This document shows positions 43,237-53,718 of a DNA stretch of 64,000 nucleotides, in pieces. The DNA lies in NCBI GenBank assembly GCA_011064725.1, contig JAAKFQ010000002.1, forward strand, positions 2,662 through 66,661, in the 5' to 3' direction. The notes under the pieces are model-generated. The model was not told the origin of the DNA. It searched no databases and saw nothing but the letters and a program-made list of their open reading frames with translations. The first letter of the stretch is position 1; every line of letters starts with the position of its first letter. Made by a program: the position numbers and the translations under genes. This DNA comes from Chlamydiota bacterium. GTDB lineage: Bacteria > Chlamydiota > Chlamydiia > Chlamydiales > JAAKFQ01.

Positions 43237-43245
43237 TGTTATAAT
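43237..43245 (+). promoter_or_regulatory. extended -10 box TGTTATAAT upstream of 43309
   Basis: TG-n-TATAAT in a very AT-rich spacer. It ends 63 nt before the ATG. It is one of six near-identical boxes in the 43-55 kb region. Confidence 0.5.
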
Positions 43246-43308
43246 TAATACAAATAGTGATAAAAAGCATAAAAAATAAAACTAATAATAATAAATAGGA
43301 GAATAAAA

Positions 43309-45612
43309 ATGTTCAATTTAACAACAAGATATGAATTTTATAAAAGCAATCTAAACGGCACTCATTTAAGCCAAACAGCTGAAGAAGGAGATTATGATGA
43401 TGAGGTAAAAACCAGTTTTGGTGTCAAGGCTGGTGCGGTTGCTTTGGCATGTCTTAGCTTATTGCCACGCGGTGCAGTGCAAAACAAAGCTATGATCGGT
43501 ATCATGGGGTGCTTTTTACCAAAACAGCCTAAAGCCGAAGCTGTCAAAACAGATAGTATTGGAAAAAGAATTTTTAGCTGGATCAGCGAAAAAGTATATG
43601 GAACTCCCGAACAGCAAACAGCAAAAGCTGAAGAAAAAGATGCTAAAAAGATGCATGCTGAAATCGAAAAGGCAAGAGCAGATTCACAAGCAGCAAAGAC
43701 AAAAAAAATCAAAGAAGAAACCGCCGCAGAAAAAAGTGCAGCTGTCGCTGAAACCAAAGCGATGAAAACAGGTCGCCAAGCGCTTGAAAAAGAAATCGAT
43801 AGATTTGTTAAAGAATTGGATTTTAAGCAATTTAAATCAATAGAAGAAATGGCTGAAGTAGCTAGGACTGTTTTCTATACTGAGGGAGCTGCGAACATAA
43901 GCTCAGCAATTACAAGTGAAATGAATGTGTTGAAAGAAGCAAGATTTTCTGGGAAATCTGTGAGTGACTTTATGACTGATAAAGAACTAGAGTTACATAT
44001 CCTTGGAAAAGTTATTAATCAATATTATGGAATTGAAGATGGAAAAGCTGTCTATTTTATTTTACAAGCATATGTAAAAGCAAAATGTGACAAAAGTACA
44101 GATTTTCATATCGCGCTTTATGAACAAGTTGATGGAGACCATCCAGCAGAAAGTCGTGCAAAACAGGCTGTTGAAAGCGTAACAAAAACAGTTGAAAAAG
44201 AACTTGCACAATACATTTCTTCAGGTAAAGCAAAAGCAAAACTCAGTGCAATATTTGCAGATTTTGCAGTGGGTTCTCAACAACTATTAGATACAGGTAA
44301 TTTTAGTAAAATAGCACATTCACAAAAAACACTAGACCATCCAGCACTTTTTGCATTAGCAACTCTTAAAGAAGCACAAAAAACAAGAGGAGAACTTCTT
44401 GATGGTTCTTTTGCAGATGTGATGACCGCATTAGATGCATTAAAAGGAGAAGCACGTGTACTACAAGCTGTTCATAATTTCGTTATTGCAGCAGATGAAG
44501 CATCGCAAGAGCTGCATGCAGCGCTAGATCCTAAGCTTCGAGCAGCAGGGACATTAGAAAGAGAATTTGGAAGTGTAGAAGATTTAAGACAATTACTAGA
44601 AATAGAAAAAGCGCTGAAAGCAGGAGTGAAAAAAAGCTTTTCTCAAGCAACAGGAACTCTTGAAGCTGTAACTACACAACAAAAACTCGTTCGACCTATT
44701 TACAATGCATTGTTTGGTACAGGCATTTTAATGCGTGCTAAAGGCTCAACTCGCCAAGCACAATTCGCAAGTTATTTTGACGAAGATGGTAAAGTAAAAA
44801 GTGCTCACGAACATGACTTTCTAAGAAGTAAGAAAGAGTTTGTTGCTGCACTTAAAGGAATAGAGGGCGTTAATTTTGATGCGCTAATTGCGGATGATGC
44901 TGATGCGCTAATTGCGGATGATGCTATAGATCATCTTAAATTACTATTGCTCGAGCTACGAGCTGAAGAAACTACTTCTACTAGAAAAGAAGAGATTATT
45001 TATGAAATTTTCGTTAGAGAAACCGTCAAAATGGCAGGAACGCCTGTAACTTTAGCAGAGTTGGTAGAGCAAAAAAAACAAGCAGTAGACCTGAGTGTAC
45101 AAAATGCTAACAAAGCATTTAGAAATGCGCAAGAAGGAGTAGCATTTCATTCCAAAGAATGTGCATCAAAACAAAAAGAATATGATGCAGCAAAAGCAAA
45201 ACTTCTCAAAGCTCAAGCAGCGTTCATAACTGCGAATGATGCTAGAGGTATAATAATTTCTGTAGAGAAATCATTAGAACAAAATCATAATGCACAAATA
45301 AGTGAAATTGCTGCAGGATATGCTCAACGATTAGTAGCTCTAGAAGAAACGGTAGAGGAAGCATCTGCAGAATGGCGTGAAGCTACAGATAGAGTCGTAC
45401 TAGCAAGTGTTGAAGTAGATATGGCTGCAGAGGACGCAACCGATGCAGATCAAATTTCTACAGGATACCTAGCAACTGCAATTCTTAGAAGATCTGATGA
45501 AATTTACCAAGATGCTCAGCAATTTGCTGCACCGGAAGGAAAAATTGAATTCGATGTTCCAGCCGTTGTGGTTGAAGAAGAAATTGGTGCTGATGCGTTA
45601 GATGAAGAATAA
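43309..45612 (+). CDS. hypothetical Ala/Lys/Glu-rich coiled-coil protein (767 aa), candidate secreted effector
   Basis: AGGAG RBS. Short paired hydrophobic stretch near the N-terminus (AGAVALACLSLL..AMIGIMGCFL), followed by long predicted coiled coils. Contains a perfect 24-bp tandem duplication. No enzymatic motif. Confidence 0.75.
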   Translation: MFNLTTRYEFYKSNLNGTHLSQTAEEGDYDDEVKTSFGVKAGAVALACLSLLPRGAVQNKAMIGIMGCFLPKQPKAEAVKTDSIGKRIFSWISEKVYGTPEQQTAKAEEKDAKKMHAEIEKARADSQAAKTKKIKEETAAEKSAAVAETKAMKTGRQALEKEIDRFVKELDFKQFKSIEEMAEVARTVFYTEGAANISSAITSEMNVLKEARFSGKSVSDFMTDKELELHILGKVINQYYGIEDGKAVYFILQAYVKAKCDKSTDFHIALYEQVDGDHPAESRAKQAVESVTKTVEKELAQYISSGKAKAKLSAIFADFAVGSQQLLDTGNFSKIAHSQKTLDHPALFALATLKEAQKTRGELLDGSFADVMTALDALKGEARVLQAVHNFVIAADEASQELHAALDPKLRAAGTLEREFGSVEDLRQLLEIEKALKAGVKKSFSQATGTLEAVTTQQKLVRPIYNALFGTGILMRAKGSTRQAQFASYFDEDGKVKSAHEHDFLRSKKEFVAALKGIEGVNFDALIADDADALIADDAIDHLKLLLLELRAEETTSTRKEEIIYEIFVRETVKMAGTPVTLAELVEQKKQAVDLSVQNANKAFRNAQEGVAFHSKECASKQKEYDAAKAKLLKAQAAFITANDARGIIISVEKSLEQNHNAQISEIAAGYAQRLVALEETVEEASAEWREATDRVVLASVEVDMAAEDATDADQISTGYLATAILRRSDEIYQDAQQFAAPEGKIEFDVPAVVVEEEIGADALDEE

Positions 45613-45640
45613 GCATCAAGCGAATAGATGTTCTAGAATA

Positions 45641-45668
45641 AAAGCCGGCCTTTAGGTCGGCTTTTTTA
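45641..45668 (+). terminator. Rho-independent terminator
   Basis: AAAGCCGGCC-TTTA-GGTCGGCTTT stem-loop followed by a T-run, 29 nt after the stop codon of the 43309 gene. Confidence 0.8.
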
Positions 45669-51971: not shown

Positions 51972-52007
51972 TAGAAGTATAAAAAAAATATAAAAAAGGG
52001 ATTAATT

Positions 52008-53630
52008 ATGTCTGGTATTGAAGTTATTGCCTATCAGTCAGCGGTTTTAAGCCATAATAGTGCTAAATTAGGGCCACAGCCTCTTACAGAGCATATGAGG
52101 TTGCAGCTTAGAGCCTCTGAGTCTACTCAGGCGTTATATCTGGCTGTTCAAAGAGCATATCCCCAGGGAGCAAAAGTGTGTATTTCAAGCCGGGGTATCG
52201 AGGTTTTGCCTTCAAAGGCAGAAGCTTGGCAAGCATTTGATCCGGATTCAAGTTTAGTTAGCCAGGTGCTTGAAGAGACAAAAGCCTTACGTATGGAGAA
52301 TTTTGAGCAGCTCGCTCTTCGAAATTTGGAAAAAGCCTCTTCTGACTATACGCAACAGAGAGTTTTTAAGCCTATCAATTCAAGAACTAGTAATTTGACT
52401 AGTAAGATTGTTTCTTTTGTCAAAGGTATTCTGGGCTATACACCAGCACCAAAGGTGATTGGTCAGGCCTTGGGTACTGCAAATTATTTATCAGGAGCTC
52501 GTTATGCCGTAGAGACAGCAGAAGCCTATCGTGATTTTAGAAACGCGAAAAGGCTTGGCGATGTAAGATTGATGTCCGAAAAAGCTTTTTCTGGAGTTAC
52601 TTCAGCTCTTGCTTGTGTAAATTCTGTCTCTTCTGCAACACAGAGTGTTGGAGAACTTTCAGGTGTTGTTCTTCCTGCAGTTGTCGGTTCTGTTGCTTCT
52701 GTAATTTCTTTTTTGAGTAGTTTATTGTTTGCGATATATAGTGGATATGAATTGTTTCATGAAACGCGATTTTCCTATGGAGTTATGCAAGCTAGAAGAA
52801 AGGGAACAACAGAAGAGACCCAAGCCAAACACATTTGGAAGTATTTTCAAAAAAGGGTTAAGGTAGATGTAGAAGAAATTCGCGTAAAAGTTCATCAAGA
52901 TAATCAAGAAAAAACTGTTAAAGAACTACGCCAAGAGGTGTCTAAACTTCATAAGCGTTTAATTCCTTTTAATCTTAAGTTTGATAGAGCGCAAAAGCGC
53001 GAACTATTCGAACAACTTGAATTTCATGTAGAGCAAATGATGCAAACAACAAAAGTTTTACAGTTTCCAGAGAGAGAACAGGGAAAAGCATTGTTGAATT
53101 ACATGGTGCTTTTGGAAAGTGAAATTCAAAGAAGAAAAGTCGATCAACACTTAGCTTTTCATACGGGAGCTGATTTGGTGAGTATTATGCATAAGTATGA
53201 AAATATAGATGAAATGGGTGAAGATGGTATTGCAAAAGTTCTTGCGGCTGATAAGCTTATTTACAATCAATCGGTGTATAAAATCAGTACGCTTTCTATT
53301 GCTTTAGCGCTTTCAGCGCTCAGTTTAACAGCAGCTCTATTAGCGGTGATTGCTGTGGCATGTCCAGGTGTTTTGCCAGCTATTGTTGTTATGGCAATAC
53401 CTATGATGGATGCAGTGGCTGCGGGTGGATTTATGCTTTATGCAGCTCAAAGCCTTATCTACAAGGTGCAATTTAATACTTTTAATGACGAGATCAAAGA
53501 AGTGTTTGAAAAAGGGGTCAAAAAAATGCCAGATAAGGATGTGGAGTCATGGACGCAATATGTTCTTAAGCGTTTTAAGAAAGAACGCCCTTCTGTTGAT
53601 TTATCTAGCCCGGATCCAGAAATCACTTAA
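52008..53630 (+). CDS. hypothetical membrane protein (540 aa), Inc-like, tandem paralog 1
   Basis: Colinear similarity to 53752..55311 (MSGIEVIAYQSAVL, AYPQGAKV, EVSKLHKRLIPFNLKFD, LLNYMVLLESEIQRRKVD, AFHTG). Has a C-terminal bilobed hydrophobic domain (...LTAALLAVIAVACPGVLPAIVVMAIPMM...). Confidence 0.75.
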   Translation: MSGIEVIAYQSAVLSHNSAKLGPQPLTEHMRLQLRASESTQALYLAVQRAYPQGAKVCISSRGIEVLPSKAEAWQAFDPDSSLVSQVLEETKALRMENFEQLALRNLEKASSDYTQQRVFKPINSRTSNLTSKIVSFVKGILGYTPAPKVIGQALGTANYLSGARYAVETAEAYRDFRNAKRLGDVRLMSEKAFSGVTSALACVNSVSSATQSVGELSGVVLPAVVGSVASVISFLSSLLFAIYSGYELFHETRFSYGVMQARRKGTTEETQAKHIWKYFQKRVKVDVEEIRVKVHQDNQEKTVKELRQEVSKLHKRLIPFNLKFDRAQKRELFEQLEFHVEQMMQTTKVLQFPEREQGKALLNYMVLLESEIQRRKVDQHLAFHTGADLVSIMHKYENIDEMGEDGIAKVLAADKLIYNQSVYKISTLSIALALSALSLTAALLAVIAVACPGVLPAIVVMAIPMMDAVAAGGFMLYAAQSLIYKVQFNTFNDEIKEVFEKGVKKMPDKDVESWTQYVLKRFKKERPSVDLSSPDPEIT

Positions 53631-53709
53631 TCAACTGCAAAACAGTCACTTATGGAATAAAAAAACATAAGAAGTTTTTTTTAAAATTATTTATTTATAT
53701 TCCAAATTA

Positions 53710-53718
53710 TGTTATAAT
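53710..53718 (+). promoter_or_regulatory. extended -10 box TGTTATAAT upstream of 53752
   Basis: It ends 33 nt before the ATG. Context: TTATTTATTTATATTCCAAATTATGTTATAATAGAG. Confidence 0.55.

Follow-up and report, generated by a model that had tools for sequence, protein, structure and literature searches.

The DNA analysed here is a 64-kb window, by which we mean the whole stretch taken from scaffold_209 (128 kb) of the metagenome-assembled genome K940chlam8, annotated as a Chlamydiae bacterium; K940_chlam_8 is a family-level uncultured lineage that is marine-sediment-enriched (PMC8242063). Together with 17.7 kb of flanking scaffold on its two sides, the window makes up the 82 kb that were inspected. 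It contains a cluster of six genes whose proteins have no significant match in Pfam or NCBIfam, each preceded by the same short box, a TG one base upstream of a -10 hexamer, which we read as the extended -10 element of promoters served by the primary sigma factor. A first-pass annotation of the window had taken the box as a sign of co-regulation in a developmental-cycle organism; the source being a chlamydia, the assumption about the life cycle is reasonable.

A six-gene cluster and the boxes in front of its genes

The first gene of the cluster, g43309 (43309-45612, plus strand), encodes a soluble protein of 767 aa with no transmembrane-like segment and is followed by an intrinsic terminator (45640-45665, plus strand) with an 11-bp stem, 6 GC pairs and then a T run. 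The product of g47275 (46391-47275, minus strand; 294 aa) is soluble, acidic and lineage-restricted, with just 6 matches at E<=1e-3 among 1.84 billion representative proteins, and that of g48142 (48142-50370, plus strand; 742 aa) is soluble and contains internal repeats. The remaining three genes, all on the plus strand, look Inc-like by their hydrophobic layout: a Kyte-Doolittle scan found two long hydrophobic regions of the bilobed type in each of their putative membrane proteins and none in the other three cluster proteins. They are g50486 (50486-51874; 462 aa, hydrophobic regions at about 163-223 and 373-425), g52008 (52008-53630; 540 aa, regions at 214-247 and 426-478) and its tandem paralog g53752 (53752-55311; 519 aa). 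The last two share 42% amino acid identity over their full length, and a word-index search with g52008 matched only itself. Apart from this pair, no two cluster proteins are detectably related in hhalign profile-profile comparisons made with shallow profiles, the probability being 3.5% for the g50486 and g52008 families and 0.2% for the g43309 and g48142 families. tRNA-Pro and the housekeeping gene for adenylate kinase, adk (47478-48059, plus strand; Pfam ADK 1.8e-26), break up the cluster; adk lacks the box.

All six boxes reported by the first-pass annotation are present, with a single coordinate slip (51964 for 51963): TGTTATAAT stands at 43237, 47308 (minus strand), 51964 and 53710, TGATATAAT at 48100 and TGTTAAAAT at 50454. 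All are found in non-coding DNA, on the same strand as the gene that follows, and measurement of all six bore out the proposed distance of 23-63 nt from the start codon, the box ending 63 nt (43237), 32 nt (47308, minus strand), 33 nt (48100), 23 nt (50454), 35 nt (51964) and 33 nt (53710) before the ATG; every leader contains a Shine-Dalgarno-like sequence. The TG is found one base upstream of the -10 hexamer (-15/-14) in all six boxes, and the hexamer is a perfect TATAAT in five and TAAAAT in one. The (T)AT said to precede the box has to be corrected, since the two bases before the TG are TA in four cases and TG in one; TRTG is thus seen in five of the six, and as many fit TRTGnTAWAAT.

The box is set apart by where it occurs. 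Over the whole window the pattern TGNTATAAT is unremarkable, with 5 copies against 2.73 expected and at least 5 in 9 of 100 shuffles, and TGTTATAAT occurs 4 times against 0.9 expected. All five window copies of TGNTATAAT, however, fall on the gene strand within the 832 nt that make up the six cluster intergenic regions, where dinucleotide shuffles give 0.15 expected and reached five in none of 2000 trials. Plain TATAAT is not enriched in the same regions (8 against 5.1), which makes the TG the informative part of the signal. The box is absent within 120 nt upstream of all 22 other window genes preceded by a gap of 40 nt or longer, TG-extended near-consensus -10 elements occur in those 22 regions at chance level (3 against 1.9, P=0.3), and the 17.7 kb of flanking scaffold hold no further copy of TGNTATAAT. 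The claim that housekeeping genes lack the box therefore stands across the 82 kb, and the proposed check of its frequency against other genes and AT-rich intergenic DNA, run on this stretch, came out in favour of a cluster-specific signal.

The best-scoring promoter site between 40 and 58 kb is that of g48142 (48080-48108, plus strand), in which TTGAAA, a 17-bp spacer and TGATATAAT together give 11 of 12 consensus matches plus the TG. The promoter of g43309 (43217-43245, plus strand) combines a -35-like TAGAAA (43217-43222) and a 17-bp spacer with TATG-T-TATAAT (box 43237-43245), and that of g47275 (47308-47336, minus strand) has CTGAAA, again a 17-bp spacer, and TATG-T-TATAAT. In front of g50486 the box TGTTAAAAT (50454-50462, plus strand) has a weaker -10 and no good -35. 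The promoters of g52008 (51938-51972, plus strand) and g53752 (53684-53718, plus strand) consist of a conserved block, AAATTATTTGTTTATACTCCAGTTTG and AAATTATTTATTTATATTCCAAATTA respectively, plus TGTTATAAT (51964-51972 and 53710-53718); promoter block and 5' untranslated region (5'UTR) of the two are 80% identical, against 53% over the whole alignment. Because the boxes at 51964 and 53710 belong to tandem paralogs, they are not independent. A usable -35 at 17 bp is thus present in three of the six promoters (TTGAAA, TAGAAA and CTGAAA, 4-5 of 6 matches), and across all six the matches to the hexamer number 5/6, 4/6, 4/6, 3/6, 3/6 and 2/6. The suggestion that the box could work without a -35 fits its extended -10 type and needs qualifying for the half of the promoters that have such an element.

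Conservation of the box in related contigs

Peptide-pattern searches for close relatives, with g52008 and adk in genome contigs and with adk in metagenome contigs, found nothing; relatives were reached instead through adk homologs and contig look-up (L004, L008, L009, L010 and L006/L007). The syntenic L004 is a JGI metagenome contig whose adk is 54% identical to that of the window and whose backbone reads Aminotran_5 - Rce1 - DUF7499 - CesT - FeS - Fer2 - small ORF (open reading frame) - [cluster] - adk - [cluster] - xerC/D-like - BPL_N - gatBAC. The adk genes of L008 and L009 are 60% and 50% identical to the window copy. L010, more distant, keeps the backbone and lacks the box, and L006/L007 were dropped for want of synteny.

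In L004 the box precedes all four cluster orthologs that have an intergenic region: TGTTATAAT at 4483, 8346 (minus strand) and 12569 and TGGTATAAT at 9343, located 42, 30, 31 and 33 nt before the ATG, respectively. The box at 8346 occupies the same position as that of g47275; TGGTATAAT precedes the g48142 ortholog at the same 33-nt distance from the ATG as in the window. In front of the g43309 ortholog TATAGAAAA...TGTTATAAT is retained, with TAGAAA conserved and 18 of the 23 bases upstream of the box identical, and the g52008 promoter block is recognisable too. The g50486 ortholog is separated from the gene before it by just 12 nt and has no box. In L008, TGGTATAAT at 567 (minus strand) precedes a g47275 ortholog, and TGTTAAAAT with an upstream TTTCTTAA, as in the window, precedes a g50486 ortholog. 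In L009, TGTTATAAT at 3673 (minus strand) precedes a gene that sits at the g47275 position and whose protein is no longer recognisably similar. At cluster positions the box is accordingly found in 4/4 cases in L004, 2/2 in L008 (one with TAAAAT) and, at the g47275 position, 1/1 in L009; as an out-of-sample test, the relatives have it before 6 of 7 genes at cluster positions and before 1 of the 13 other genes (p=0.0012). No TGNTATAAT stands before adk in the window, L004, L008 or L009. An alignment of 14 promoters from the four genomes shows no conservation beyond TA-TGTTATAAT-A. The promoters of L008 and L009 have a poor -35, as do the window promoters of g50486, g52008 and g53752, and the element is not conserved in these two contigs.

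The proteins behave very differently. Cluster proteins are 24-34% identical between the window and L004, compared with 91% for CesT, 71% for gatB, 70% for xer and 54% for adk; the g43309 ortholog (830 aa) is 24.5% identical, that of g48142 (572 aa) 28-33% and that of g50486 31%, and g47275 is 27% identical to its ortholog in L004 and 40% to that in L008. Because such diverged syntenic orthologs exist in L004 and L008 (24-40% identity), the genes are lineage-restricted and the label ORFan, under which they were first listed, does not hold in its strict sense. Retention of the box at orthologous sites and the 80% footprint shared by the paralog promoters, both in the face of protein divergence, indicate that the boxes are, as judged from these alignments, under purifying selection while the proteins diverge fast. 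Lineage-restricted fast divergence, Inc-like domains and a CesT-type chaperone nearby suggest in turn that the six genes are probably type III secreted effectors.

Similarity also extends to the start codons. The form A(A/T)TTATG, described earlier for four of the six start regions, is in its strict version present in three; the shorter ATTATG does occur in four, at 47275 (minus strand), 48142, 50486 and 52008, and is found again in L004 at 4534, 8315 (minus strand) and 12609, in L008 at 1426 and in L009 at 3640 (minus strand). Four of the six cluster genes start with Met-Ser (ATGTC). Gene content varies between adk and the xerC/D-like recombinase, where the window (48142-55311), L004 (9385-14150), L009 (4384-5604) and L010 (11053-12627) have 4, 3, 1 and 1 family-less genes, respectively; the window copy of this zone contains the tandem duplication g52008/g53752.

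Nature of the promoters and competing explanations

TRTGnTATAAT is the "-16 region" or extended -10 consensus of sigma70-family promoters. There, region 2.4 of sigma recognises TATAAT and region 3.0/2.5 recognises the TG, placed one base further upstream; these contacts render the -35 contact partly or wholly dispensable. The chlamydial primary factor, sigma66, recognises promoters of the TATAAT/TTGA type, and the mapped leaders of C. pneumoniae are mostly 10-50 nt long (PMC3333780), a range matched by the 23-63 nt between box and ATG in the window. In C. trachomatis, ompA P3 is a sigma66 promoter shown to require the TGn (Cong et al. 2016, PMC4893696). We therefore consider it likely, with a probability of roughly 80%, that the boxes are functional promoter elements. 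In our best reading each of the six genes would have its own strong sigma66 extended -10 promoter; the boxes themselves are shown to be present, non-randomly placed, specific and conserved, whereas sigma66 usage, start sites, strength and the effector role of the genes are what we infer from the sequence. Each cluster gene would then be its own transcription unit, read by the sigma66 (RpoD/sigma70 homolog) polymerase from a predicted start about 6-8 nt past the box, with a 5' leader of about 16-56 nt carrying the Shine-Dalgarno sequence. The upstream regions would be alike because each converged on the polymerase optimum or kept it, with no shared operator of a dedicated regulator; the g52008/g53752 promoter would have been inherited through tandem duplication, and selection would hold the promoter core while the coding sequences diverge.

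The closest general counterpart is the sigma70 extended -10 class, typified by E. coli galP1 and common in Bacillus and other Gram-positives, with which the boxes share the TG spacing, TATAAT, T-R in five of six, a variable or weak -35, and position. There is no difference at the level of sequence; what sets the present promoters, whose activity is predicted, apart is their confinement, in 82 kb, to one fast-evolving gene group. Within the phylum, and presumably with the same sigma factor, ompA P3 likewise has a TGn one base upstream of the -10, but by experiment it needs both the TG and its -35, whereas here the -10 is mostly a perfect TATAAT, the -35 is often poor and the genes are effector-like; a TGn has also been noted in the C. 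trachomatis early promoters Peuo and groES (PMC4893696). The Pmp family of C. pneumoniae provides a parallel for g52008/g53752, namely paralogs that share a -35/-10 promoter (Albrecht et al. 2011, PMC3333780); the Pmp motif has a strong -35 and -10 and a T-rich spacer, and an extended -10 is not described for it. Finally, a "virulence regulon" of effector/Inc genes was predicted from shared upstream footprints (Domman and Horn 2015, PMC4652624). It too concerns effector-type genes with similar upstream sequences across Chlamydiae; in the lineage studied here, the data suggest that the shared signal is just the core promoter. The promoters described here are real, conserved, gene-class-specific and of a well-known type, and they are conserved far better than the proteins they drive. 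In an uncultured lineage, a TGNTATAAT located 20-70 nt before a start codon may thus flag effector-like genes that are invisible to homology searches.

Several points weigh against this account. The housekeeping genes used for comparison are all low-expression enzymes, and the contrast could reflect promoter strength instead of gene class. The inspection covered 82 kb of the genome, in which no sigma factor gene was seen, and orthologous promoters are not independent samples. A pure core-promoter reading also leaves unexplained the ATTATG start context, present in four of six cluster genes and in 0 of 51 other window genes, and the recurrence of AGTATA(T)AA near the predicted +1 of several promoters; these two elements could stem from shared descent of 5' modules or from a preference in the initiation of translation or transcription.

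That TATAAT-like words arose by chance in very AT-rich spacers might be argued from the 16-30% GC of the cluster intergenic regions, the unenriched plain TATAAT and the insignificant window-wide count of TGNTATAAT; chance is effectively refuted by the shuffles restricted to intergenic DNA (5 against 0.15, with none of 2000 reaching 5), by the consistency of strand and distance, and by the fact that three other contigs retain the box at orthologous positions. An operator for a dedicated transcription factor, or a site for an alternative sigma factor, would make the cluster a true regulon and would account for confinement of the box to one gene group, but we regard it as very improbable: the motif does not differ from the extended -10 consensus of the sigma70 family, is neither palindromic nor repeated, and keeps a fixed promoter distance; the 14 aligned promoters have no other conserved positions and yielded no conserved site distinct from the core promoter elements; and environmental chlamydiae have sigma66 and sigma54 only (PMC4652624), the box being unlike the sigma54 element TGGCAC-N5-TTGC (PMC3333780). 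A motif search around the box likewise found marginal similarity only and no operator-like element. Outside the box, the five independent promoters of the window show a similarity of 0.40 against 0.33 at -25 to -1 (P=0.014), a segment that spans the TA and the -35-like bases, and 0.48 against 0.435 downstream of the box (P=0.065), with no excess at -45 to -26 (P=0.43). The shared 9-mer, offered in the first-pass annotation as a sign of co-regulation and possibly of a stage-specific regulon, is simply the consensus of the primary sigma factor; by itself it points to a strong sigma66 promoter and not to a dedicated regulon, and the promoters have little else in common. Descent of the whole cluster by tandem duplication, with promoter, 5'UTR and start module passed on to every gene and the coding regions changed beyond recognition, strikes us as rather unlikely, although it is true of one pair: the paralogy of g52008 and g53752 is proven and their promoter modules are 80% identical, g50486 has the same layout of two hydrophobic domains, the gene number between adk and xerC varies (4, 3, 1, 1 among relatives), ATTATG(TC) turns up repeatedly at start codons and AGTATA near +1, and older paralogy would be invisible when orthologs are already at 24-34% identity. 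Against this stand the lack of profile-profile homology between the g50486 and g52008 families (3.5%) or the g43309 and g48142 families (0.2%), the marginal outside-box similarity among the five families, and the perfect box itself, which descent leaves unexplained unless function is under selection.

A regulon defined by promoter architecture is a tentative alternative, doubtful on present evidence. It holds that a perfect extended -10 with a weak or variable -35 marks a temporal class: such promoters would stay active at low supercoiling, or when a factor such as Scc4/CT663, an anti-sigma factor that is also a secretion chaperone, blocks -35 recognition by sigma66 region 4, and effectors would be co-expressed at one stage. 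The box is exclusive to cluster genes in the window and conserved in relatives, and the -35 is poor in three of the six window promoters and in those of L008 and L009. In C. trachomatis, Scc4/CT663 inhibits -35/-10 promoters while sparing extended -10 promoters (Rao et al. 2009, reviewed in PMC7403470) and thereby offers a known chlamydial route to separate the latter class, to which any link of the present promoters is hypothetical; in the same species the TGn has been proposed as a signature of early promoters (PMC4893696, PMC7403470), and co-regulation of effector/Inc genes across Chlamydiae has been predicted from shared footprints (PMC4652624). Among 80 further loci of chlamydiae (700 kb), found by way of the CesT chaperone, a TGn with a near-consensus -10 is commoner before locus-unique than before conserved ORFs (13.2% against 4.1%, p=0.007; crude gene calls, non-independent loci). 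The same loci, which do not carry the cluster and lack the 66-aa marker gene, nearly lack the strict box, with 4 gene-upstream matches, 2 of them before the conserved chaperone. Three window promoters have a good -35; by its neighbourhood, the nearby chaperone would seem to resemble Mcsc/CT260 more than Scc4; Inc and soluble effector genes of C. trachomatis belong mostly to different cell-form regulons (PMC12095286), whereas here both carry the box; and a difference between strong and weak promoters explains the contrast with low-expression enzymes equally well. The fullest version of the idea appears quite unlikely to us, namely that in this marine chlamydial family the fast-evolving effector/Inc genes form a class by promoter architecture alone, in which a perfect TRTGnTATAAT bypasses sigma66 region 4 and escapes Scc4-type control or low supercoiling, the group being switched at one developmental stage without a DNA-binding regulator and the module, including ATTATG, being kept while proteins turn over. 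Exclusiveness to the cluster genes and conservation in three contigs speak for co-regulation; a box that equals the general sigma consensus does not by itself show it, and one pair shares its box by descent. Co-regulation or stage-specific expression of the six genes is, on this analysis, plausible. If architecture does mark a temporal class, the division of sigma66 transcription by TGn promoters and Scc4, an idea that comes from C. trachomatis, would carry over to environmental chlamydiae.

Neighbouring genes and other elements

The gene for a CesT-family type III secretion chaperone (41198-41740, plus strand; Pfam CesT 4.7e-30, weak PDB matches to CesT and SicP) is located 1.6 kb ahead of g43309, with a CT253-family lipoprotein, PP2C and a NifS-like gene as neighbours. 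From the C. trachomatis gene order, we take this chaperone to be the probable equivalent of Mcsc/CT260, an orthology that is presumed. Mcsc chaperones Inc proteins (PMC2734247). The CesT chaperone is unusually constrained, being 91% identical to that of L004 and 65-82% to 345 metagenomic relatives, next to 54% for adk and 71% for gatB in L004. In two other chlamydial contigs, L014 (at about 500) and L048 (at about 1437), TGNTATAAT stands 56 nt ahead of the gene for the conserved CesT chaperone, so that across the phylum the box is not limited to fast-evolving genes. The NifS-like aminotransferase gene (38368-39486) is the sole housekeeping gene with a perfect TATAAT, accompanied by TTGAAA at 17 bp, without a TG, and located 25 nt before the ATG; a TRTGCTAAAAT site lies 167 nt upstream (region 38190-38342).

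Between Fer2 and g43309, a small ORF (42881-43081) encodes a 66-aa coiled-coil protein. Identity to it is 81% in L004 and about 50% in L009 and L006/L007, and such conservation marks the ORF as a genuine small gene. Structured repeats of about 190-236 nt that resemble miniature inverted-repeat transposable elements (MITEs) occur at 45704-45939, 14730-14940 and about 20466-20659; they have terminal inverted repeats of about 35 bp, TAATACCArTAGTAAAAATTAAATGT... / ...GTTAATTTTTrCTATTGGTAT, and modular GC-rich internal hairpins. The copy at 45.7 kb, between the g43309 terminator and tRNA-Pro, has a predicted fold of -107.9 kcal/mol (z = -11.8) and matches no family in Rfam; as it is absent from the orthologous spacer of L004, it is an insertion. 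A scaffold gap (N run; L001 9668-9766) just past the window end falls within the 5' part of a family-less 815-aa gene (61504-63951, minus strand), whose start as annotated is likely an artefact. The spacer upstream of mnmA contains a bacterial small signal recognition particle RNA (29581-29677, minus strand; Rfam RF00169, 57.1 bits).

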